A model generated the notes under the pieces. The model searched no databases and was not told where the DNA came from. It worked only from the letters and a program-made list of their open reading frames with translations. From positions 1-44,375 of the forward strand of contig JBFMBF010000007.1 of assembly GCA_040755315.1 (NCBI GenBank): a stretch of 44,375 nt of DNA. Reading direction: 5' to 3'. Source of the stretch: Candidatus Hadarchaeota archaeon (GTDB taxonomy: Archaea; Hadarchaeota; Hadarchaeia; Hadarchaeales; Hadarchaeaceae). Shown here one piece after another: positions 4,956 to 38,961 of this stretch. Positions within the stretch are counted from its first letter, which is position 1. The number at the start of each line of letters is the position of its first letter. The position numbers and the translations under genes were made by a program.

Positions 4956-6344
4956 TCAACTTTTAAAAAGTGTTTCGATGGTTGGTTTTTCTGTTTCGTG
5001 ATTAATGCCGATCCCGTTCGCCTTCGAAAAATCTGTTACTTCTTTTCCTAGCGATATCACAAAAGAACTGTTGATCTTTCCAACGAACTCCTTTTTCAAT
5101 CCGAGTTCGTCCGCCGCTTTCAGCAAGTATCTCAGAAGTCCCGAACTCGTCAGCAGAGTGAAGTCGTTCTTTGTTTTGAGGTACTCTCTGACGGCCCCAT
5201 CCAGATTTTTTGGCTTGACCTGATAGGCCACGATGTTCACGGCGCCCTCTAACTTCTCCTCCGCGAGAGGTGACCGGAATGCCAGGACCCGCCCCCATCT
5301 CCTCTTTCTCAGGAGCTCCCTCACGCCGCCCAGATTCTGCTCCCGGGGGACGGAAACGCGCCGATGCCCGTGGCGCCGAAGCTCTCGCCTAGTCGTCCCT
5401 CCGACCGCGACCAACCTGTACTTCCTGAAATCAAAAAACCCGGCAGTTGATCGGACCCCGGCCGCGCTCATGAAAACAAGCGTGCCCCAGCGCTCGGATG
5501 CGGCGCGTTTCAGGTTCTCTTCCTCCGGTTCAATCTCGCAGATTTCGAAAACGTTTGGGATGCCGCCCGCCCGTCTGATTAGCCGTTCCGTTCGCCCGAC
5601 CTCGTCGCGCGCCCTGAAAGCCGCGACCCGCTTGCCACGGAAGTCGAGCAGGGTACTTATCACCTTCCCTACAACCAGGACTGCGGGAGGACTCGCACCT
5701 AGCCGCCGCGAAAAATCAACTATCCTGTCCAATGTTGAGACAACGAGGCGCCCTTCCTCGGTCGCTCCATGACTTACCAAAGCGCACGGTTCCGCCCCGG
5801 ACTTCCCTGCGCGGGTCTGCTCCCTAACCACTTCCCCAATGTTCTCAACCACCATCAACACCACCACCGTGTCCCCCAAGCGGCGCAAGTCCGGCCTCCT
5901 GCGCTCGGCACGGTGCCCTGTCAGGATTGTGAGGCTCGATGAAACACCGCGCCTTGTCAGTGGAATCTTCGCGAGGGATGGAACCGCAATCGCTGAGGAG
6001 AGGCCGGGGACCACCTCCACCTCAACCCCCCTCTGCTGGAGGTACTGAAGCTCCTCGCCGCCGCGCCCGAACACCATCGGGTCGCCGTTCTTCAGCCTGA
6101 CCACAATCTTCCCCTTCCGCGCCTCGGAGCAAAGCCTGCGGTTGATCCAGTCCTGCTTCAGCGGCTCCCCCGGGCGCTTCCCGGATGGGATTTTTTTTGC
6201 CTTTCTGGCGTAATCGAGGGCGCTTGGATCAATCAACCTGTCATGGAGGACGACATCCGCCTTCTTCAGTGTTTCAACAGCCCGGAATGTGAGAAGGTCT
6301 GCTGACCCGGGACCGCAACCGACTAGGTAGACTTTTCCTGGCAC
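4956..6344 (-). CDS. cobA: Uroporphyrinogen-III C-methyltransferase fused to a HemD-like synthase domain
   Basis: VYLVGCGPG, VVRLKNGDPMVFGRGGEE, VVPGLSS. The C-terminal half has HemD-like VFMSAAGV/AVGGTT. Confidence 0.88.
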   Translation of the reverse strand: MPGKVYLVGCGPGSADLLTFRAVETLKKADVVLHDRLIDPSALDYARKAKKIPSGKRPGEPLKQDWINRRLCSEARKGKIVVRLKNGDPMVFGRGGEELQYLQQRGVEVEVVPGLSSAIAVPSLAKIPLTRRGVSSSLTILTGHRAERRRPDLRRLGDTVVVLMVVENIGEVVREQTRAGKSGAEPCALVSHGATEEGRLVVSTLDRIVDFSRRLGASPPAVLVVGKVISTLLDFRGKRVAAFRARDEVGRTERLIRRAGGIPNVFEICEIEPEEENLKRAASERWGTLVFMSAAGVRSTAGFFDFRKYRLVAVGGTTRRELRRHGHRRVSVPREQNLGGVRELLRKRRWGRVLAFRSPLAEEKLEGAVNIVAYQVKPKNLDGAVREYLKTKNDFTLLTSSGLLRYLLKAADELGLKKEFVGKINSSFVISLGKEVTDFSKANGIGINHETEKPTIETLFKS

Positions 6345-7177
6345 AAAATTCTCCCCGCTTTCTTTCCCAACATGATTGGATTTTTACCTTCCAGCTTGAT
6401 TAGCCTGCGCCCGCCATCGTGAACCACCGCAACCAGATTTATTTTCTTGCCCCTCGCTCTTGCAACTGCGCCGGCCCCTCCACGGCATCCTGAACCGAGC
6501 TCATTCAGGAAGGCCCGCTCGCAGGTGACCTCCTTCCAAGCCCGGTTGTCATTTATCTTTTTTAAAAAACCTGACCCGCCCTTCCTCTTTACCACCGCCA
6601 GCGCACCTTGTCCCGGTGCTGGGACCATTTCCCCCAGCTCAAACACCTGCGCGGCCATGTTTTCTATGCCAAGCCTCTCTAACGCGGCAAAGGCGACGAT
6701 TGTTCCATCGTACGTCTTCCCATCAACCTTAGATATGCGAGTCTCTATGTTCCCCCGGATTTCCATGAACTTCAGGTCTTGACGTATAAACGAGAGTTCC
6801 GCCGCTCTTCTTGGGCTGTCCGTCCCGATAACGGCGCCTCTTGGCAGACCTTGGATGTCAACTCCCTTCCAGGACACGAGCGCGTCATTGGGCGACATCC
6901 TCTCGGGAACGCACGCCACCTCCAGCCCGCGCGGAAGTTTTGTCGGTAGGTCTTTCATGCTGTGGACCCCAATGTCAACCTCTCCTCTGAGCACCGCTCG
7001 GTTGATCTCGTTCACGAATATCCCCCCAACAATTTTTCCCCGGCGGACATCTCCAGCGGTTTTTATCACCATGATTTCTCCTTCAAGATTTGGAACAACT
7101 TTCTTCAATTTTTTCAAAACCAGCTGAGTCTGCAACAGCGCAAGCTTGCTTCCGCGTGTCCCGATCCTAAGTTCCAT
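6323..7177 (-). CDS. hemC: Hydroxymethylbilane synthase
   Basis: IGTRGSKLA, VHSMKDLPT, IRGNIETR, PAPGQGAL. Confidence 0.95.
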   Translation of the reverse strand: MELRIGTRGSKLALLQTQLVLKKLKKVVPNLEGEIMVIKTAGDVRRGKIVGGIFVNEINRAVLRGEVDIGVHSMKDLPTKLPRGLEVACVPERMSPNDALVSWKGVDIQGLPRGAVIGTDSPRRAAELSFIRQDLKFMEIRGNIETRISKVDGKTYDGTIVAFAALERLGIENMAAQVFELGEMVPAPGQGALAVVKRKGGSGFLKKINDNRAWKEVTCERAFLNELGSGCRGGAGAVARARGKKINLVAVVHDGGRRLIKLEGKNPIMLGKKAGRILCQEKST

Positions 7178-8159
7178 CCAACCACTTCACAGCATCGAGA
7201 GCGGCATAGGTGATGATGAAGTTGGCCCCGGCGCGCTTTATGGATGTGAGTGTTTCAATGAACGCCATCTTTTCATCAAGCAGGCCGCGCTGGCCAGCCA
7301 GCTTTAACGCCGCGTATTCCCCGCTCACCTGATATGCCGCCAGCGGCACGTCAAACCTCCTCCTTGCCTCCGCAATGACATCCAGATAAGGCAAAGCCGG
7401 CTTGACCATCGCGATGTCTGCCCCCTCTTTTACGTCAAGCGACATCTCGTACATGGCCTGCTCCAGGGATCTGAAGTCCATCTGGTAAGTGCTGCGGTCT
7501 GTAATGTACGGCAGGCCCTTAACCCGCTTGGGCGCACTTTCAACCGCGTCCCTGAAAGGGCCGTAGAATGAGCTGGCAAACTTCGCCGAGTAGCTCATTA
7601 TCCCCGTGTCCGTGAACCCCTCGGCATCGAGAGCGCCACGGATTGCCTTCACCTGACCATCCATCATGGCAGAGGGGGCGACGAAGTCAGCCCCCGCCCT
7701 GGCGTGGGAAACCGCAGTTTTCGACAGCAAATCCAAAGTGCGGTCGTTGTCCACCCCACGCTCTGCCAAAACCCCGCAGTGGCCATGTGAAGTGTACTGG
7801 CAAAGGCAGACGTCCGTAAACACAACGATGTCTGATATCTCTTTTATTTTCTTGACAGTTTTTTGCACGACCGCCTCGTCATTGTACGCCTCTTTCCCCA
7901 TTGCATCCTTTCTCGCAGGTATGCCGAACACCAGCAGCCCCGGAATTCCTGCCCTTTCACAACTCTTAACGACCTCGCCAATGTCACTCAAGGAATGGCG
8001 GTAGTGCCCCGGGATGCTTTTTATCTCTGTTTTTTCCAGCTGCCCTTCCTTGACGAAAACTGGGTAGACAAAATCATCCTTGCTCAAGCTAACTGAACTC
8101 ACAAGTTTCCTCACTTTATTGCTCTTCCTCAGCCGCCTCAGCCTTGCTTCAGGCGCCAC
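7167..8159 (-). CDS. hemB: Porphobilinogen synthase (Zn type)
   Basis: RLRRLR, DVCLCQYTSHGHCG, PSAMMDG, YGPFRDA, MVKPA, YQVSGEY. GTG start at 8159 preferred over 8231. Confidence 0.95.
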   Translation of the reverse strand: MAPEARLRRLRKSNKVRKLVSSVSLSKDDFVYPVFVKEGQLEKTEIKSIPGHYRHSLSDIGEVVKSCERAGIPGLLVFGIPARKDAMGKEAYNDEAVVQKTVKKIKEISDIVVFTDVCLCQYTSHGHCGVLAERGVDNDRTLDLLSKTAVSHARAGADFVAPSAMMDGQVKAIRGALDAEGFTDTGIMSYSAKFASSFYGPFRDAVESAPKRVKGLPYITDRSTYQMDFRSLEQAMYEMSLDVKEGADIAMVKPALPYLDVIAEARRRFDVPLAAYQVSGEYAALKLAGQRGLLDEKMAFIETLTSIKRAGANFIITYAALDAVKWLDGT

Positions 8160-8580
8160 GCTCCAGCTCCTCCTTGACCTTCTTTGACAGGCGAGGATTC
8201 TTCCCGAATGTTGAAAAGGAAAACACGCCAAAGTCTTTTTCTATCACTGCCGGAAAAATGACGTTGCCGCCCTCGAAGAAATCCGCCCTGTTCACAAGAC
8301 AGCCTTTCCTCATGGCGCTCTTTGAAATCTCCTCGTTGAGTTTTTTATCATCGGTGGCCGCCACGACCAAAAAATATCCCCTGAAAGACGGCATATTTTC
8401 CGGCCCCAAATTTTTCTGGACGAACCCCATGCGGCCTTTGAGCCTGACTTTTTTCTTGTCCACGACCGTGACATCCGCGCCAGCCGCAAGCAGCTTCTCC
8501 GCCCTCCGCTTCCCGACTTTGCCAAACCCAACTACCAAGACCTTCTTCCCCCGAAGGCTCACGTGAAGGGGCAGGTACAT
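8149..8580 (-). CDS. sirC: Precorrin-2 dehydrogenase (SirC/CysG N-terminal type)
   Basis: YLPL, VLVVGFGKVGKRR, LVVAATDD, STFGKNPRLS. Confidence 0.8.
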   Translation of the reverse strand: MYLPLHVSLRGKKVLVVGFGKVGKRRAEKLLAAGADVTVVDKKKVRLKGRMGFVQKNLGPENMPSFRGYFLVVAATDDKKLNEEISKSAMRKGCLVNRADFFEGGNVIFPAVIEKDFGVFSFSTFGKNPRLSKKVKEELERGA

Positions 8581-9732
8581 CTACTTCGTCTCTTCGGCCT
8601 TTTTCCTAGAATAGTAGTGGTTCATCAGCAACTCCGCCAGCTCCGGCCTCATTATCTTCTCCGAAATCGGCTTCCCCTCAAGGAGCAGTTCCCTTATCTT
8701 CGTGCCGCTGAGGCTCACCCTCGTGCTCTTCAGGTGCGGGCATGTCTTTTCCGTGGCCATCGCGTCGCAGAGCACGCAGAAGAACGCGTTTTCAAAAAAC
8801 ATTGGCGTTATCCCGAGCTCTCCCTCCTCAAACTCGAAGAATATCCGCTGAGCGTCATACGGCCCGTAGTAGTCGCCGACCCCCGCGTGGTCCCTCCCGA
8901 CTATGAAATGGGTGCAGCCAAAGTTCTTCCTCACGAGGGCGTGGAATATGGCCTCCCTCGGCCCGGCATATCTCATGGAAGTCGACAGCGCGGCGAGCAG
9001 GAACCTGTTTCTAGGGTAATAGTTGTTCAGGATTATCTCGTAGCTCCTGACCCTGACATCCGCCGGCACGTCCTCCTTCCTGGTCCAGCCGACGATGGGG
9101 TGAATCAAAAGCCCGTCCACGACCTCAAGGGCGCACTTCTGCAGGTACTCGTGGGAGCGGTGGAGGGGGTTGCGGGTCTGGAAGCCCACGATCGTGCGCC
9201 AGCCCCTCTCGGAGAACTCCTTCCTGGTCTGCGCCGGGTCCATGTGGTACCTTTCAAACGGGTGCTTGGGGCGGTTCACCAGGTCTATCTTCCCTCCCAG
9301 CAGGACATTCCCCCAGCCGTAAACTGTCGCGACTCCAGGGTGCTCCTCGTCGGCCGTGCGGAAGACCTTCTGGGCGGTCTCCCTTTTGTTGTACCCGAAC
9401 TTTTCCTCAAGATGCAGCACCGCAATTGGAGTTCTTTCCTTGTCCAGAAGCGCCACATCCTCTCCCTCCTTGAGCCCGGCCGCCGTTTGCTCGTCAACCG
9501 GGAGGACAATTGGGATTGTCCACGGCGAGCCGTCCTCAAGCCTCATCCTGTTCAGCACCGAGTCGAAGTCCTCCTTCGTGAGAAATCCTTCGAGAGGGCT
9601 GTAACCCCCAGTGCAGATGAGTTCGGCGTCCATTATCATCTCGTCGCTCGGAACTATCGTCTTGTAACCCTTCAGCTCCGCGAGAATCTTGTCCCTCGCC
9701 TGACCGGTCAAAATCCTGTTCACGAGCGCCAT
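8581..9732 (-). CDS. sat: Sulfate adenylyltransferase
   Basis: GGYSPLEGF, FQTRNPLHRSHEY, YAGPREA, HFIVGRDHAG, LSGTKIR. Confidence 0.96.
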   Translation of the reverse strand: MALVNRILTGQARDKILAELKGYKTIVPSDEMIMDAELICTGGYSPLEGFLTKEDFDSVLNRMRLEDGSPWTIPIVLPVDEQTAAGLKEGEDVALLDKERTPIAVLHLEEKFGYNKRETAQKVFRTADEEHPGVATVYGWGNVLLGGKIDLVNRPKHPFERYHMDPAQTRKEFSERGWRTIVGFQTRNPLHRSHEYLQKCALEVVDGLLIHPIVGWTRKEDVPADVRVRSYEIILNNYYPRNRFLLAALSTSMRYAGPREAIFHALVRKNFGCTHFIVGRDHAGVGDYYGPYDAQRIFFEFEEGELGITPMFFENAFFCVLCDAMATEKTCPHLKSTRVSLSGTKIRELLLEGKPISEKIMRPELAELLMNHYYSRKKAEETK

Positions 9733-9741
9733 CCAGTCACC

Positions 9742-10050
9742 TTAAACAGTCTTCCTTTGTATCTCAAACTTTTCCACCTTTCCGTCCGGATCCGTCAACG
9801 TCCAAACAATCTTGTCCTTGCCCATCTCCGGCACCAGCGTGGCTTCATAGCGGGCGATGGCCTTCGGCAACTTCAGGGTGATGGCCCTCACGGGGCAGTG
9901 CTTGACGCAGACCCAGCAGTTCCAGCAGTCCCTGTTGTCCCAGATGAAAGCTTTTCTTGTCTTCGGGTTAAGGGCGAGGAGATCGCCCGGGCAGAGCTTC
10001 ACGCAGAGGCCGCAGCTGTTGCATGTTTTTTCGTCAATGGCTATCGGCAT
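9742..10050 (-). CDS. aprB: Adenylylsulfate reductase beta subunit (2x[4Fe-4S])
   Basis: CNSCGLCVKLCPGDL and CWNCWVCVKHCP. ATG at 10050 follows GGGGTGA. Directly downstream of aprA. Confidence 0.85.
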   Translation of the reverse strand: MPIAIDEKTCNSCGLCVKLCPGDLLALNPKTRKAFIWDNRDCWNCWVCVKHCPVRAITLKLPKAIARYEATLVPEMGKDKIVWTLTDPDGKVEKFEIQRKTV

Positions 10051-10054
10051 TCCA

Positions 10055-11788
10055 TCACCCCTTGTACCTGTCCCCCGGCAGCATCTGCATGTAAGGCACC
10101 TTGAACACATTTATCTCCCCTGTGTTTGGATCCCGCCTGCTGTTGACGAAACACGGCCAGTTCTCATCGTCCAACTTTGTGTAATCCAGCCTCGTCTGGT
10201 ATCCCGGCCACCTTGTCTCTTTCCTGAATATCAGGTGCTCCACAAGTACCCTTGCGACATCTATCCGGTCTATAAGGTCGTGGGCGAGCATCAGCTCGTG
10301 CAGGTTTTCGGCCGCAAGCTCGTTGGCGTGCTTATCGGCCAGTTCCTGGAGGCGCCTGCGCGCGACCAAAAGCCGCTCCTCGTCCATCTCGTAAAAGACG
10401 CTTATGCCGCCCGCATACTTGTCCATCGTGGATTGGAGTTCGTCCTCGAGTCCCGCCGGCTTCAGTTTTCCGCTACCGTCCTCCCACCTGACAATCGGAT
10501 CAAAAATCCTTTCCAACTCCCGCTCGGCGAGTCCCTTGTCGACCTCTCCAATTTCACTTGTCTTGATGTACTCGACGGCTGAGCGGGCGGCGATGACTCC
10601 CTCCGCCCAGCAACCGGAGACGAACTTGTAAGGCACTCCGCCGGCGACATCCCCTGCCGCGAACAGGCCGTCGAGGGTCGTCCTTCTGCTCTCGTCCACC
10701 CAGTAACCCGCCTGGCAATGCCCGCCAACTATGTACGGCTCCGTGCCGGAGATTGCTATCGGCTGCTTGCTGGGGTCTATCTTGTTGGCCGCCAGCCAGA
10801 GCGTCATCTGAGGATACATGTCGAGGTAGCTGGCCTTCAGCTGCCTGACCCTGTCCAGTGTGAGGTGTCTTGTGTCGAGGTAGCAGGGCCCGCGGCCTTC
10901 CTTGACCTCCATCGTCGGGGCGTAAGCCCTGATGGGAGTTGGAGCACCTTCACCACCCATGTTGGCATACCTGGTCTTCATGTACTGCTCGCCCTTCGCG
11001 TTCACCTGGGCCGCGCCGAAGCCTAGAGCAAGAGTCCCGGTCGGCGCGATGATGTCTTTTACCCTGAGGGCGATGAACCTCATCTCGAAGCTAGTCATCT
11101 CGGCGCCAGCCCGAATCCCCATGGCGTAGCCCGCGCCAGTGTTGAACGGGCTGTACCACATAGTGTGGTGGGCGTCGCCCGTGTTGTTCGGCAGATAAAT
11201 TCCGGCGGCCCCGCCAGTCGCGATGATTGTGGCCTTCGCCCTCACCACAAAAAACTTCTTATCGCGGAGGCTGAAGCCGAAGGCCCCGACCACGCGATTG
11301 CCGTCCAGGATGTAATTCGTGGCGACGGTGTGGTTCAGAACCGTGACTTTGGACTCCGCAACGGCTTTTGAAATTATTGTTTTGAGGGCTTCTCCGTTTA
11401 TCTCGACGTTCCACCTTCCGCGCCGGGAGTAGTTGCCCTTCTCATCCTTCGTGATCGGGAGTCCCCAGCCCTCCACCTTCTTGACGGCGGGATTCACCTC
11501 TTTTATCATGCTGAGGGTGAGGTCCTCGCGACAGATGCCCATCGCCTGCCACCGCACGTACCTAGTGAAGCTTTCAGGTGTTTCCCCTGGGTGAAGATAA
11601 ACATTGATGGCGTTCATCCCCGCCGCCAAACAGCCGCTCCTGTCTATGTGGGCTTTTTCCATTATGACGACCTTCAGCCCCGGCTTGAGCCTCTTCGCCT
11701 CCACAGCCGCCATGCACCCGGCAGCCCCGCCTCCTATTATCAGGAGGTCGGCGTCCAATTTTTCCCATCTGATTTCTTCAAACTTCAT
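10055..11788 (-). CDS. aprA: Adenylylsulfate reductase alpha subunit
   Basis: IIGGGAAG, EKAHIDRSGCLAAGMNAIN, INGE, FVSG, RKETRWPGY. Sits beside aprB and sat. Confidence 0.9.
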   Translation of the reverse strand: MKFEEIRWEKLDADLLIIGGGAAGCMAAVEAKRLKPGLKVVIMEKAHIDRSGCLAAGMNAINVYLHPGETPESFTRYVRWQAMGICREDLTLSMIKEVNPAVKKVEGWGLPITKDEKGNYSRRGRWNVEINGEALKTIISKAVAESKVTVLNHTVATNYILDGNRVVGAFGFSLRDKKFFVVRAKATIIATGGAAGIYLPNNTGDAHHTMWYSPFNTGAGYAMGIRAGAEMTSFEMRFIALRVKDIIAPTGTLALGFGAAQVNAKGEQYMKTRYANMGGEGAPTPIRAYAPTMEVKEGRGPCYLDTRHLTLDRVRQLKASYLDMYPQMTLWLAANKIDPSKQPIAISGTEPYIVGGHCQAGYWVDESRRTTLDGLFAAGDVAGGVPYKFVSGCWAEGVIAARSAVEYIKTSEIGEVDKGLAERELERIFDPIVRWEDGSGKLKPAGLEDELQSTMDKYAGGISVFYEMDEERLLVARRRLQELADKHANELAAENLHELMLAHDLIDRIDVARVLVEHLIFRKETRWPGYQTRLDYTKLDDENWPCFVNSRRDPNTGEINVFKVPYMQMLPGDRYKG

Positions 11789-12561
11789 TTAATCACCTGT
11801 TTCGCCAGCACTACTGCTCCAAGCACTATAGCTGTTATTCCCACAATCCGTTTTAGAGTTTTTGACCTCAGGCGTTTGGCTGTCGCGGCGCCGAGAATGA
11901 CCGCGACTGACCCCCCCAACATTAGCGGTGCCAAGACATCGAGCTGCACCCCTGTGAAAGCAAAGTATGTGGCGCTGCCGATGAGCGCGACAAAAAATCT
12001 CGCGAGAAGGGATGAACCGACCGCCGTCTGCGGCAGAACTCCTAAAAAAATGAGCAGCGGCACCCCCAGCGGACCCCAGCCGGTGCCGAGGGCCCCGTGA
12101 GAGAGCCCGGCAACGAGGCCCACGAGAGCGATGGATGAAGCGCTTGGGCTCCGAAGCCTTTTGGACAATTCTTTCAGCGCGTGGTTGTTGTTTGACCTAG
12201 GGAACTTCACTATGATAAAAGCTCCCGCCATTATTGTTGAAACACCGACCAGTAATGTGAGCTCTTTCACCGGTATGTGAGTCGATAAAATGGCGCCTGA
12301 CAGTGCCCCGACCATACCGGTTATCGCCAGCGGAACCAGTATCTTCCGCCTTCCGTTGCCCTTCTTGTAGTGGTACAGGCCACCCAGGGGAGAAATAACC
12401 ACATGCATCATCAAACTTGAACCAATCGCCGCCGTCGGGCTGACGCCTAGCAGGACCAGGCCTGGAACGATGGTTGCACCGACTCCGGCACCCACGACTC
12501 CGCCCAGATAACCTCCTACGGCCCCGACCAGCAGAACCGCAAGGATGGTTTCAAAAGGCAT
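11785..12561 (-). CDS. TauE/SafE family sulfur-oxyanion permease
   Basis: About 8 hydrophobic segments with duplicated Gly-rich GxxGxGxG..VP.L and PxxA(I/V)GSSL repeats. Confidence 0.88.
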   Translation of the reverse strand: MPFETILAVLLVGAVGGYLGGVVGAGVGATIVPGLVLLGVSPTAAIGSSLMMHVVISPLGGLYHYKKGNGRRKILVPLAITGMVGALSGAILSTHIPVKELTLLVGVSTIMAGAFIIVKFPRSNNNHALKELSKRLRSPSASSIALVGLVAGLSHGALGTGWGPLGVPLLIFLGVLPQTAVGSSLLARFFVALIGSATYFAFTGVQLDVLAPLMLGGSVAVILGAATAKRLRSKTLKRIVGITAIVLGAVVLAKQVIK

Positions 12562-12676
12562 CTAAATCCCACTCCCCCCGCCCACGCTGGGCGTTTCGAA
12601 GACGCGCTTTGAATAGGAAAATGAATCGATACCAAGCTGCGCTAGCTCATCCGGCCTAGCACCGGCAGCACCGGCA
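12562..12676 (-). promoter_or_regulatory. Structured 5' leader (candidate attenuator) of the sulfate operon
   Basis: Long interrupted hairpin at 12630-12676 covering the Cys codons, a pyrimidine tract at 12611-12625, and overlapping hairpins at 12591-12605 and 12579-12593 next to the tauE RBS. Confidence 0.55.
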
Positions 12677-12697
12677 ACAGCAAACTACATCCCTCAT
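12656..12697 (-). CDS. Cysteine-rich leader peptide MRDVVCCCRCCRC
   Basis: ATG AGG GAT GTA GTT TGC TGT TGC CGG TGC TGC CGG TGC TAG, preceded by AAAGGTGGTGTAA. Six of the last eight sense codons are Cys. Confidence 0.8.
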   Translation of the reverse strand: MRDVVCCCRCCRC

Positions 12698-12744
12698 TTA
12701 CACCACCTTTGGCGTCTCCACTATAACATTGTAATAAATTATGG

Positions 12745-12760
12745 TATTAAAAACCTTTCT
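12745..12760 (-). promoter_or_regulatory. BRE-TATA promoter of the leader peptide/sulfate operon
   Basis: Minus strand AGAAAGG-TTTTTAATA, about 48 nt upstream of the leader ATG. Confidence 0.65.
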
Positions 12761-22671: not shown

Positions 22672-22818
22672 TCAGCAGCAACAGCACCCCGGGAATCCTG
22701 CTGCTTCCCCTTTTTGCAATTTTTCCATGTACTCCTTTGCTTTCTCTCCTTTGATTTCAATCCTGATCCCATCGTCGGTCTCGATGCATCTTACCTCACA
22801 TGCAACTTTTTCTGTCAA
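22672..22818 (-). CDS. 48-aa microprotein ending in CCCC (putative metal/thiol-binding)
   Basis: Not in the ORF track. GGAGGTGA RBS then TTG. Translation: MTEKVACEVRCIETDDGIRIEIKGEKAKEYMEKLQKGEAAGFPGCCCC. Confidence 0.8.
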   Translation of the reverse strand: MTEKVACEVRCIETDDGIRIEIKGEKAKEYMEKLQKGEAAGFPGCCCC

Positions 22819-28038: not shown

Positions 28039-29088
28039 CTACTCGATTATGTCGATTTTTGACAGAATCTTCCGCTGCTCTTCGGTTATCTCGATGGGGT
28101 GCGGCCTCTCCGGGACGCTGACTTCCTTCACCTCGCCGAACAGCAGGGTGGAGAAGTAGCGGAACCCATGGTCGTTCAGCATCGTCACTATCCTCTTGAG
28201 CTCCGGGTGCTTATTGTGGAGCCTTATGCAGGCCTCGACGTTGGCGCCGCTTGATATGCCCACGAAGAGCCCCTCGTCCCTGGCTATCCTCTTTGTCATC
28301 CAGATGGCCTTTTCCGAAGAAACCATGATGGCGCCGTCGGTTAGTGAGATGTCAAAAATGCTCGGGATGAAGCCGTCGCCAATCCCCTCTATCCTATGGG
28401 TCCCCCACTTCTGCTTCGTGAGGACCGGGCACTCCTCCGGCTCAACGGCGTAAATCTTCACGTTCGGGTTTTTTTCCTTCAAATACTTGGCCACGCCAGT
28501 GAGGGTCCCGCCCGTCCCTACCGTGGCCACAAATGCGTCCACCTTCCCGCCTGCCTGCTCCCAGATCTCCGGCCCAGTCGTCTCGTAGTGGGCCTCAACG
28601 TTCTTCTCGTTGTTGAACTGGTTGACCCAGAAGTAGTGGCCCGGGTCCACGGCTATCAAATCCTTCGCCTGCTTCACGGCCAAATCAACGTCGGACTCCG
28701 CCCCGGGGAAAGTCATGAGCTTGGCTCCGAAGGCCCTGATGGCCTTCATCCTCTCCTCGCTCATGCCCGCAGGAATTATAATAACGACGGGAAAGCCGAG
28801 GTATGTGGCGAACATCGCGGTGGCAATCCCCGTGTTGCCAGTGGTGCTTTCGACCACCGTCATTCCGGGCTTGAGTTTTCCTTCCTTCATGGCGTCCGTC
28901 AAAATCTTCACCAGCACCCTGTCCTTCAGGCTGCCGGAAGGGTTCATGAACTCCGCCTTCCCGAAGAGCTCCATGTCCGGGAGGCCAGCCAGCTTAGGGA
29001 GCCTGCCCATCTTTATAAGAGGCGTCCCCCCGACCAGATCGCGAATGTCGCCGACGGCCCTCTTGAACTTGTCCCACTTTATTTCCAT
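28039..29088 (-). CDS. cysK: PLP-dependent cysteine synthase family protein
   Basis: KAEFMNPSGSLKDR, ESTTGNTG, HYETTGPEI, GTGGT, IEGIG, GISSG. Start taken at MEIKW. Confidence 0.88.
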   Translation of the reverse strand: MEIKWDKFKRAVGDIRDLVGGTPLIKMGRLPKLAGLPDMELFGKAEFMNPSGSLKDRVLVKILTDAMKEGKLKPGMTVVESTTGNTGIATAMFATYLGFPVVIIIPAGMSEERMKAIRAFGAKLMTFPGAESDVDLAVKQAKDLIAVDPGHYFWVNQFNNEKNVEAHYETTGPEIWEQAGGKVDAFVATVGTGGTLTGVAKYLKEKNPNVKIYAVEPEECPVLTKQKWGTHRIEGIGDGFIPSIFDISLTDGAIMVSSEKAIWMTKRIARDEGLFVGISSGANVEACIRLHNKHPELKRIVTMLNDHGFRYFSTLLFGEVKEVSVPERPHPIEITEEQRKILSKIDIIE

Positions 29089-29135
29089 TCGACCCCATAA
29101 ACTCATAAATCTCCGGCTTAAATCTCCTTGGTGCA

Positions 29136-30335
29136 ATGATGAAATCAGCTTTCGTCTTCGCAGTGATGCTGATGCTCGCCGGGGCCGCCGCAGCGGACGA
29201 GTGGCCCGCGTTCAAACATGACGCCCAGAGAACAGGTTACGGTCAGCTGGGTCCGGAGAACGGCGAGGTAGCCTGGACCTTCTCGGCGGCCGGATCATTT
29301 TCCTCGCCCGTCATCACCAACTACATCATTTACATCGGCTCCTCAGATGGCACACTGCGGGCGGTGGATGTGTTCAACGGCCGCGAGGTCTGGTCCTTCA
29401 GGGCTGGCGACGAAGTCTCCACGCCAACTGTGTCCGGCGGCCGCGTCTACTTCGGCTCGCGCGACAACTCCGTCTATTGTCTGAATGCCGTCACCGGTGA
29501 AAACATCTGGAAATACACGACCGGAGACGCCGTCTACTCCTCCCCTGCAATTGTCGACAACACGGTCTACATCACCTCGACCGACAACCGACTCTATTCC
29601 CTGAGCGCCCAGACAGGGGGCCTCATCTGGTCCGCTGACCTCGGAGCCAAGATTACGGCTTCCCCGGCTGTCCAGAGCGGAAGGGTGTTCGTGGGTACCT
29701 GGGCGGGGGCGATGGTCTCAATAGGTTCCGACGGCTCTGAGATCTGGCGGAAGCAGCTGGGCGGCCAAGGTGCTTTTGAAAACTACGCGATAGTGTCCAC
29801 CGCCGCCGTCTCGGGTGCCATGCTCTACGTGGGCTCCAACGACGGGAACCTCTACGCCCTCAACTCGGGGACTGGACAGGAAATCTGGAAGTTCACAACG
29901 GCGGGGCAGGTCCAATCATCCCCTGCGATTGCGGACAACGCGGTCTACTTCGGCTCGGTGGACGGCTACATCTACGCCGTCGATGCCACGGGAGAGTCGC
30001 TGAGGTGGAAGAAGAAAACAGACGGAGAGGTCAACTCATCCCCTGCGTTGGCCGGAGGAAGGGTCTTCGTCACATCTTCGGACGGGTTTCTTTACAACAT
30101 CGTGGCGGAGAGCGGAGAACTGGCCTGGAGAATCCAACTGGGGAGCATGGTGAAAAACTCTCCCGCCATCGCCTACGAGAAGGCCTTCGTGAGCACTAAC
30201 GATGGGAGGCTCCACTGCGTCGGGAGTTGGGGGAAAGCGCCGGGAGGGAACGTCGAGAAGGGGTTGTTATTTCTCGCAATCGCCATAACTTTCTTCTTCA
30301 TCCTCAGGTGGCTCGGGAAGCACAGGCCCACTTGA
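29136..30335 (+). CDS. Secreted PQQ-like (BamB-type) beta-propeller repeat protein with C-terminal membrane anchor
   Basis: Signal peptide, repeated SSPA..VYxGSxDGxLYAL..TG..W units, C-terminal hydrophobic helix. Confidence 0.85.
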   Translation: MMKSAFVFAVMLMLAGAAAADEWPAFKHDAQRTGYGQLGPENGEVAWTFSAAGSFSSPVITNYIIYIGSSDGTLRAVDVFNGREVWSFRAGDEVSTPTVSGGRVYFGSRDNSVYCLNAVTGENIWKYTTGDAVYSSPAIVDNTVYITSTDNRLYSLSAQTGGLIWSADLGAKITASPAVQSGRVFVGTWAGAMVSIGSDGSEIWRKQLGGQGAFENYAIVSTAAVSGAMLYVGSNDGNLYALNSGTGQEIWKFTTAGQVQSSPAIADNAVYFGSVDGYIYAVDATGESLRWKKKTDGEVNSSPALAGGRVFVTSSDGFLYNIVAESGELAWRIQLGSMVKNSPAIAYEKAFVSTNDGRLHCVGSWGKAPGGNVEKGLLFLAIAITFFFILRWLGKHRPT

Positions 30336-38866: not shown

Positions 38867-38961
38867 TGGTGGGGTCGCCGAGATTTGAACTCGGGTCACC
38901 GGCTCTTCCGCGCTTTCGCGCCCCGAAGCCGGCAGGATAGGCCATGCTACCCCACGACCCC
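38867..38961 (-). tRNA. tRNA-Pro(CGG) with a 17-nt intron at 37/38 and encoded CCA
   Basis: Acceptor stem GGGGTCG/CGACCCC-A-CCA, anticodon stem CCGGC/GCCGG, loop TT-CGG-G, T arm CCGAG-TTCAAAT-CTCGG. Intron at 38905-38921 forms a bulge-helix-bulge. Confidence 0.95.

Follow-up and report, generated by a model that had tools for sequence, protein, structure and literature searches.

A conserved cysteine-codon leader open reading frame ahead of a sulfate-assimilation operon in Hadarchaeota, a candidate sensor of Cys-tRNA supply

The sensing of amino-acid supply by a leader peptide is a textbook bacterial mechanism. In the Proteobacterial trp, his and leu attenuators, which rely on coupled transcription and translation, the leader open reading frame (ORF) is enriched in codons for the amino acid of its own pathway. 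For cysteine, the closest experimental system is represented by the polycysteine leaderless short ORFs (sORFs) of mycobacteria, attenuators of the Ms5788A type described as a 'Cys ribulon' (Canestrari et al., bioRxiv 10.1101/834739), while the closest prediction is that of actinobacterial Cys leader peptides for the cys operons of Mycobacterium and Propionibacterium and for cbs of Bifidobacterium, for which a factor-dependent mechanism (Rho, tna-like) was suggested (Seliverstov et al. 2005, PMC1262725). Among the literature matches listed in our searches, amino-acid leader peptides were published for bacteria only, with no archaeal example. Here we describe a 13-codon sORF, rich in Cys codons, which heads a tauE-aprAB-sat-siroheme operon on contig JBFMBF010000007.1 of a Candidatus Hadarchaeota archaeon (assembly GCA_040755315.1); the 44,375-nucleotide (nt) stretch analysed is referred to as the window.

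The elements of the leader region are the following, BRE and SD standing for B recognition element and Shine-Dalgarno.

12697..12656, minus strand: leader sORF, 13 codons plus TAG, encoding MRDVVCCCRCCRC (read from the sequence; homologues in relatives)
12659..12682, minus strand: Cys-codon tract, 6 of 8 codons (read from the sequence)
12701..12710, minus strand: SD-like AAAGGTGGTG, containing the GGTGGTG ribosome-binding motif (sequence; leader alignment)
12745..12760, minus strand: BRE/TATA-like string AGAAAGGTTTTTAATA, candidate promoter (sequence; near-identical in the relative G002)
12731..12742, minus strand: second TATA-like stretch ATAATTTATTAC, standing in the leader alignment opposite the TTTTATATAAC box of the other lineages
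12723..12735, no strand assigned: imperfect palindrome ATTAC-AAT-GTTAT, candidate operator, one base off ATAAC-N3-GTTAT
12562..12655, minus strand: spacer of 94 nt from the sORF stop to the tauE start, its longest T run being T4 (12621-12618)

Specifically, the sORF reads ATG AGG GAT GTA GTT TGC TGT TGC CGG TGC TGC CGG TGC TAG (12697-12656), with the start codon at 12697-12695, the stop codon at 12658-12656 and Cys at six of the 13 codons, all within the final eight. A first-pass annotation had reported a 13-codon minus-strand ORF with six Cys in its last eight codons behind a ribosome-binding site, ending 94 nt before the tauE ATG (12561); re-reading of the sequence reproduced this description in every checkable detail, downstream genes included, and the BRE/TATA-like string it placed at 12760-12745 is present as a candidate promoter. 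A short direct repeat, GGGAU[G/U]UAG, occurs on the minus strand at 12693-12685 (sORF codons 2-4) and at 12570-12562, just before the tauE start, both in the window and in G002.

By comparing this locus with the systems described above, it appears that it shares with the trp, his and leu attenuators a cognate-codon-enriched leader ORF placed before its own pathway, whereas the U-run terminator and antiterminator hairpins of trp and his were not found here, the window leader holding no T run of five or more. The mycobacterial sORFs are alike in being short Cys-rich first cistrons before cysteine or sulfur genes, in the proposed pausing of ribosomes for Cys-tRNA and in lacking a classical terminator. 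They differ in being leaderless, whereas here a conserved SD 3-6 nt upstream probably argues for a leadered mRNA; in forming six loci per genome, whereas here one locus was found per genome and a scan for SD-led biased sORFs gave no second Cys leader; in the RNA duplex that hides the downstream ribosome-binding site of Ms5788, no such duplex being found here by ribosome masks or duplex energies; and in the host, which here is archaeal, with CysRS not found and Cys made on the tRNA. The leaders predicted by Seliverstov et al., bacterial where the present one is archaeal, are alike in their Cys runs near the stop and in showing no conserved terminator hairpin (PMC1262725).

How often such a frame arises by chance was estimated within the source assembly (G000; 1.21 Mb, 50 contigs, 86.6% complete), where Cys accounts for 1.14% of codons (970 long ORFs). 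Only two frames of the whole assembly carry at least five Cys in eight codons behind a start, and the sORF is the sole short one, the other being 71 residues long. Of ten simulated order-2 Markov genomes, each as large as the assembly, one contained a frame with at least six Cys in eight codons, and two contained a short frame (up to 40 residues) with at least five. Taken alone, then, the Cys-rich frame is an event of about one in 10 genomes; in addition, the final 18 nt of the tract form a 9-nt tandem duplication (TGCCGGTGC twice), as would suit a GC-rich repeat that merely happens to read as Cys codons. It is conservation that settles the non-chance origin of the element: the sORF is kept at every orthologous locus at an identity far above that of synonymous sites, and the leader pattern is tied exclusively to the sulfate operon, so that we regard the chance explanation as extremely improbable.

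Orthologues of AprA with 77-93% identity were found in three of 41 related genomes (G001, G002 and G008). A TauE profile search recovered the same three and L027 (=G049) in the species genome collection, with three metagenome contigs besides, and a Sat search of 66 Hadarchaeota genomes added G060. The sample thus comprises nine loci from seven lineages (window, G002, G008, L027, L029, L028, L030, G001 and G060), L029 being almost the same as L027, and L030 identical to L028 over 450 nt of leader. A homologous sORF precedes the operon at all nine loci, in G060 before a relic of tauE, and shares the pattern ATG-[AT]GG-GAT-nnA-nTT-TGC... The encoded peptides are listed below.

Window: MRDVVCCCRCCRC
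G002: MRDVVCCCRCCWC
G008: MRDLVCPCCVCC
L027 and L029: MRDLLCGCCDCC
L028 and L030: MRDSVCDCCDCC
G001: MRDLVCLNSD
G060: (MST)MWDLFCCSS

Thus the Cys-rich sORF with a conserved ribosome-binding site, which the first-pass annotation had proposed to look for upstream of related operons, has a homologue at each of them, with five to six Cys codons kept in five of the seven lineages, two adjacent Cys in G060 and one in G001. The motif GGTG[GA]TG is invariant in the seven aligned leaders, and the distance from sORF to tauE is 94-105 nt in the seven leaders measured. The pattern ATGAGGGATNNANTTTGC occurs once each in five of the 66 Hadarchaeota genomes, always at the sulfate operon, and its reversed control nowhere; the G060 leader is one base off this pattern and was hence missed by the scan. 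Since the upstream neighbour genes vary between loci, promoter, sORF and spacer travel with the operon as a module. As for the SD, GGTG lies within 16 nt before 143 of the 961 long-ORF starts of G000, compared with 32 in a control window, which indicates that the source genome uses an SD of the GGTG type; the 16S 3' end is absent from the source assembly.

Segment identities were obtained from global alignments, in which unrelated upstream DNA scores 0.52-0.57.

Window and G002: four-fold sites of tauE/aprA 0.54/0.62; promoter (75 nt) 0.93; sORF 0.98; spacer 0.68
G008 and L027: four-fold sites of tauE/aprA 0.47/0.63; promoter (75 nt) 0.72; sORF 0.87; spacer 0.76
L027 and L028: four-fold sites of tauE/aprA 0.67/0.75; promoter (75 nt) 0.68; sORF 0.92; spacer 0.89

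In every comparison among polycysteine leaders the sORF is the best-conserved segment; between the window/G002 and G008 types it still reaches 0.67-0.71, with four-fold sites at 0.31-0.40 (saturated). Within either polycysteine group, substitutions hit non-Cys codons only (R/W; V/L, P/G/D, V/D, L/S). The layout of the run is CCCRCCRC in the window and CCCRCCWC in G002, as compared to CxCCxCC in the G008 type, and both groups stay Cys-rich, the last Cys directly adjoining the stop. Cys codons which are kept while other residues change are the signature of regulatory codons. A second pattern concerns the SD and the 5' part of the sORF, its first six codons, where even synonymous positions are invariant (GGTG[GA]TG, ATG, GAT in 8/8 and the first TGC in 8/8). 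Two kinds of constraint are thus present, one at the nucleotide level on the SD and first six codons, and one on codon identity in the Cys run.

In conclusion, the conserved Cys-codon leader ORF is real. We propose, with a probability of about 60%, that it is a cis-acting leader ORF, on which the ribosome would read the supply of Cys-tRNA(Cys) and so set the expression of the tauE-aprAB-sat-siroheme genes.

The same conservation could also be expected if the product were a working Cys-rich micropeptide of 12-13 residues, for instance a metal- or sulfur-binding partner of TauE or of the reductase. The CxCCxCC spacing is identical in three distinct G008-type sequences, M-R-D is conserved, and the source genome encodes a conserved Cys-rich small protein of 48 residues elsewhere (22675-22818). 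On the other hand, the window type and the G008 type are unlike in Cys spacing and peptide length, G001 and G060 have lost the Cys residues but not the operon, and no specific maturation or partner genes were found; a first ORF about 95 nt before an operon for the biosynthesis of the amino acid it is rich in has, moreover, the classical layout of a leader. The peptide is also shorter than the Cys-rich microproteins known to us. Considering these points together, a functional micropeptide seems quite improbable.

Some of the diverged loci show features of their own. The leader sORF of G060 lacks the GGTG motif and has two Cys codons only, its spacer contains T5 and T7 runs, and tauE (L075 6800-7000, minus strand) survives as a relic of some 70 codons in which the N-terminus is joined to the C-terminus, with the aprAB-sat-siroheme genes kept. 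The tauE gene of G002 (L002 around 4160, minus strand; L024 2195) has ACG rather than ATG at the start position, with an in-frame TAG just before it and a C-terminal extension (310 as compared to 258 codons, counted from the ACG); the start may be a non-canonical one, the assembly may be in error, or the gene may be in early decay. In G001 (L026/L023 940-960, plus strand) the in-frame codons after the sORF stop TAA are GGC TCG AGT TGT TGC TAG, a segment which looks homologous to the post-stop spacer of the other leaders, and not to the lost Cys run.

The genes downstream of the leader are the following.

11785..12561, minus strand: tauE, permease of the TauE/SafE family, first operon gene, ATG at 12561 (Pfam PF01925, 142.4 bits)
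10055..11788, minus strand: aprA, adenylyl-sulfate reductase alpha subunit (NF005331, 763.8 bits, cut-off 557)
9742..10110, minus strand: aprB-like 4Fe-4S subunit (ferredoxin) (TIGR02060, 64.3 bits, below cut-off)
8581..9732, minus strand: sat, sulfate adenylyltransferase (NF003166, 539.3 bits)
4956..8580, minus strand: siroheme/tetrapyrrole gene block (Pfam and NCBIfam, as for its four genes below)
8149-8580, minus strand: precorrin-2 dehydrogenase-like gene
7167-8231, minus strand: hemB
6323-7177, minus strand: hemC
4956-6344, minus strand: cobA-hemD fusion

Against the TIGR02061 model, aprA scored 461.9 bits, below the cut-off of 641.75. The single NIR_SIR locus of G000 lies on another contig and encodes a sulfite reductase of the NirA/Sir type (504 residues); a second locus was not found in the assembly, and therefore no DsrAB. 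APS kinase was not found in G000 either, which makes adenylyl sulfate (APS) rather than 3'-phosphoadenylyl sulfate (PAPS) the likely substrate of the reductase, and a CysK-like gene maps in the window at 28039-29136 (343.9 bits, cut-off 344.15). The findings on sulfite reductase, APS kinase and CysK fit the view, already put forward in the first-pass annotation, that this AprAB/Sat set is assimilatory. A related case is Methanothermococcus thermolithotrophicus, an archaeon which carries out assimilatory sulfate reduction with a dissimilatory-type, AprAB-like APS/PAPS reductase (Jespersen and Wagner 2023, PMC10322725). The present locus differs from it in that no APS kinase was found and in that the sulfite reductase is NirA/Sir-like, not F420-dependent; the abstract of that study describes no leader.

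What a Cys codon can report depends on how Cys-tRNA is made in the host. G000 encodes SepRS (559.5 bits) and SepCysS (501.7 bits), together with one detected tRNA-Cys(GCA). All four polycysteine genomes (G000, G002, G008 and G049) carry SepRS, with SepCysS confirmed in G000; SepRS has been recognised in Hadesarchaea before (Mukai et al. 2017, PMC5424206). None of the four yielded a CysRS (best score 34.2 bits in G000 and 42.7 bits overall, cut-off 340), G008 being 94% complete in 3 contigs, and a CysRS match at E <=1e-30 was obtained in nine of the 66 Hadarchaeota genomes. With SepRS and no CysRS, a reduced-sulfur donor would feed the formation of Cys on the tRNA itself, and a stall on the Cys run would report sulfur supply. 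The term 'cysteine-sensing' used in the first-pass annotation would thus hold as regards Cys codons as the sensor, but not as regards free cysteine as the signal. Only one of the six operon-bearing genomes, G001, whose leader has a single Cys, contains a CysRS-like gene, which at 324.9 bits stays below the cut-off of 340; a link between this gene and the lost Cys run is suggestive only (n=1), with G060 as a counter-example, where two Cys are left and no CysRS was detected at E <=1e-30.

Under the leader-ORF proposal, the transcript would start a few nt after the TATA box and palindrome, and ribosomes, recruited by the conserved SD of the GGTG type, would translate 12-13 codons, ending in seven to eight that are mostly Cys. 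As would be expected from bacterial leaders for Cys, Trp and His, scarcity of Cys-tRNA(Cys) would stall the ribosome on the Cys run beside the stop and raise operon expression, while with plentiful Cys-tRNA(Cys) the ribosome would finish and leave, and expression would fall; the stall would thereby report sulfur supply, the end product of the controlled pathway. For the output, our first preference is that the stalled ribosome would relieve premature termination in the U-rich spacer in a tnaC-like manner, termination being either intrinsic at oligo-U or factor-dependent, of the FttA/aCPSF1 type; archaea, to our knowledge, lack Rho, and FttA/aCPSF1 would be its analogue. As a second preference, it would open a structure hiding the tauE ribosome-binding site, as in mycobacteria, and as a third, a ribosome stalled close to the 5' end might stabilise the mRNA.

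Several results weigh against this proposal, starting with the search for an RNA switch. Whole-leader folds were not more stable than mononucleotide shuffles (z from -1.21 to -0.03), and local folds, when compared with dinucleotide shuffles, gave z values from -1.67 to +1.54, none beyond the controls. Masking a ribosome stalled on each Cys codon led to no consistent freeing of the tauE SD, whose unpaired probability is 0.20-0.50 in the free state and is shifted inconsistently by the masks. Duplexes between Cys tract and spacer, between the 5' end of the sORF and the tauE translation initiation region, and between SD and spacer were no stronger than dinucleotide shuffles in all seven leaders. 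RNAalifold applied to the four G008-type leaders proposed five helices, which include one between the Cys tract and the 25 nt that follow it, a hairpin ahead of T5 and one between the sORF 5' end and the region just before the tauE start; compensatory pairs amounted to one of 40, and the covariation score equalled the shuffle control (255/500). A T run of at least five occurs in the spacers of six of the eight distinct leaders (G008, L027, L029, L028, G001 and G060) and is absent from the window (T4) and G002 (T3). The L027 leader has one hairpin followed by T5; the window leader has no terminator-like site. Rfam gave no gathering-score match in the window and none at E <=1 in the window and L027 leaders.

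Beyond RNA structure, G001 (one Cys) and G060 (two Cys) retain the operon without the Cys run, and the nucleotide-level constraint at the sORF start would not be explained by a simple codon-counting model. Only one such leader is present per genome, with no regulon-wide pattern; likewise, when SD-led sORFs with single-amino-acid runs were inspected ahead of 1068 gene proxies, none stood out as a convincing leader of some other pathway. Finally, the GGTG stands 6 or 3 nt from the sORF ATG, while the genome mode is 5 nt (74 cases versus 4 and 2), a weak point against an optimal ribosome-binding site.

In conclusion, folding, duplex, ribosome-mask and covariation tests give no support for any RNA switch. 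Of the cysteine-sensing attenuator initially suggested for this locus, the conserved Cys-codon leader with its SD and the spacer of about 95 nt stand, while no sign of an attenuator structure was obtained, folds, duplexes and covariation being equal to the controls. The sensor part is well supported; the output mechanism we infer.

That no RNA switch was found would also suit a TnaC-like arrest of the ribosome by the nascent peptide (M-R/W-D-x-x-C start, Cys beside the stop), triggered by a small molecule (free cysteine, sulfide or sulfite, for example) and not via tRNA charging. The N-terminal residues stay conserved in the lineages without the Cys run, and in the five polycysteine lineages the run always adjoins the stop. 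Nevertheless, the N-terminal conservation is at the nucleotide level and need not reflect the peptide, 12 residues barely fill the exit tunnel, and we know of no archaeal precedent for a small-molecule arrest peptide. We hold this explanation to be very improbable.

A different type of control is suggested by the palindrome ATAAC-N3-GTTAT, which adjoins the TATA box of the leader promoter, the invariant GTTATA beside that box being one of its halves. It is perfect in six of the eight distinct leaders (G008, L027, L029, L028, G001 and G060) and has one mismatch in the window and in G002; the copy at 12723-12735 is the sole site of the window with at most one mismatch (0.27 expected). Genome-wide counts of perfect sites are given below, followed by the genes for a helix-turn-helix (HTH) protein found next to some of them.

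G000: 5 perfect sites (C14:6274, C14:7717, C23:10558, C30:4047, C37:4959)
G008: 4 perfect sites; reversed-pattern control 1
G002: 5 perfect sites; reversed-pattern control 0
G049: 5 perfect sites; reversed-pattern control 0
G001: 11 perfect sites; reversed-pattern control 1
L047 3319-3711 (= C14:7318-7710), minus strand: HTH gene of G000, 130-residue protein, conserved and Cys-rich
L067 3034-3423, plus strand: HTH gene of G008, with a palindrome site upstream

The four G008 sites (L067 3021-3033, 3940-3952, 7657-7669 and 15363-15375) all lie inside 12.4 kb. They are found, respectively, before the HTH gene (129 residues), 16 bp upstream of tRNA-Cys, between the divergent genes for Thi4 and for the homocysteine-synthesis protein HcyBio, and at the sORF promoter, with genes for IscS, IscU, ThiI and a ThiS-like protein around them. 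A palindrome 13-16 bp upstream of tRNA-Cys is common to G000, G002, G008 and G049, and one directly upstream of the HTH gene recurs in G000; unlike in G008, no operator within two mismatches was found before HcyBio in G000. Between G000 and G008 the HTH proteins show 47% identity; both have a C-terminal CxxC...C.LH...CxxC region and match the ArsR/SmtB and BigR models below threshold only; the family occurs in 31 of the 66 Hadarchaeota genomes, including all six with the operon. The palindrome is probably an operator which gives the operon additional transcription-factor control, the Cys-rich HTH protein is the candidate regulator at these sites, and the overall picture resembles a sulfur regulon controlled by a Cys-rich repressor, with the sulfate operon and tRNA-Cys both wired in.

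These observations bear on the possibility that the conserved element is itself a DNA or RNA signal (a transcription-factor operator, a protein or small-RNA site, or the initiation region of something else), the Cys frame being incidental or a decaying relic and the palindrome factor the main regulator. Along with the palindrome and its distribution, this would account for the invariance of the SD and first six codons at synonymous positions between groups in which four-fold sites are saturated, and for the retention of the N-terminal codons in G001 and G060, where the Cys run is missing. An operator is, however, unable to explain the kept frame, the length of 12-13 codons and the stop right after the last Cys, nor does it explain why substitutions fall on non-Cys codons and why Cys-richness is kept in two tracts of different build. 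Being a separate element some 25-30 nt upstream of the sORF, the palindrome can coexist with the leader as a second layer, and an RNA signal finds no Rfam match even at E <=1. We thus regard this possibility as unlikely.

The leader-ORF proposal can be joined to the palindrome data in a more specific form, which we advance tentatively, since we find it possible but doubtful. Here archaeal leader-peptide control would operate through a Cys run reading the flow of reduced sulfur into Sep-tRNA conversion, not free cysteine, and would work together with the Cys-rich HTH regulator, whose operator would also lie on the tRNA-Cys promoter.

Two further elements of the window are reported here.

22675-22818, minus strand: gene of 48 codons, starting at TTG behind a perfect AGGAGGTGAT SD and ending GCCCC; a PadR gene lies divergent to it, and a T7 run follows
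38867-38961, minus strand: tRNA-like gene of 95 nt with undetermined anticodon (ARAGORN)

The frame at 22675-22818, which lies upstream of a deaminase-family gene, was considered as a second Cys leader and rejected: with its perfect SD and all 48 residues conserved, it encodes a small protein. The protein is conserved over its full length (69% in G001 and 60% in G002), including a C-terminal C[CG]CC, and has no Pfam family. The tRNA-like gene is possibly an intron-containing archaeal tRNA.

The leader also speaks for an assimilatory AprAB/Sat set, a reading which matters wherever apr and sat genes in metagenome-assembled genomes of subsurface archaea are scored as markers of sulfate respiration. 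As regards the leader, it offers a short, concrete and testable element with which to ask whether archaeal coupled transcription and translation serves regulation, and how it could do so without Rho or hairpin terminators. If the more specific form of our proposal is true, there would be a direct feedback loop between the product of a sulfate-to-sulfide operon and decoding, and the leader as sensor, tRNA-Cys as the sensed molecule and the pathway itself would form one regulon. The leader would also link decoding to tRNA-dependent cysteine synthesis, about whose regulation and physiological sulfur donor little has been established.

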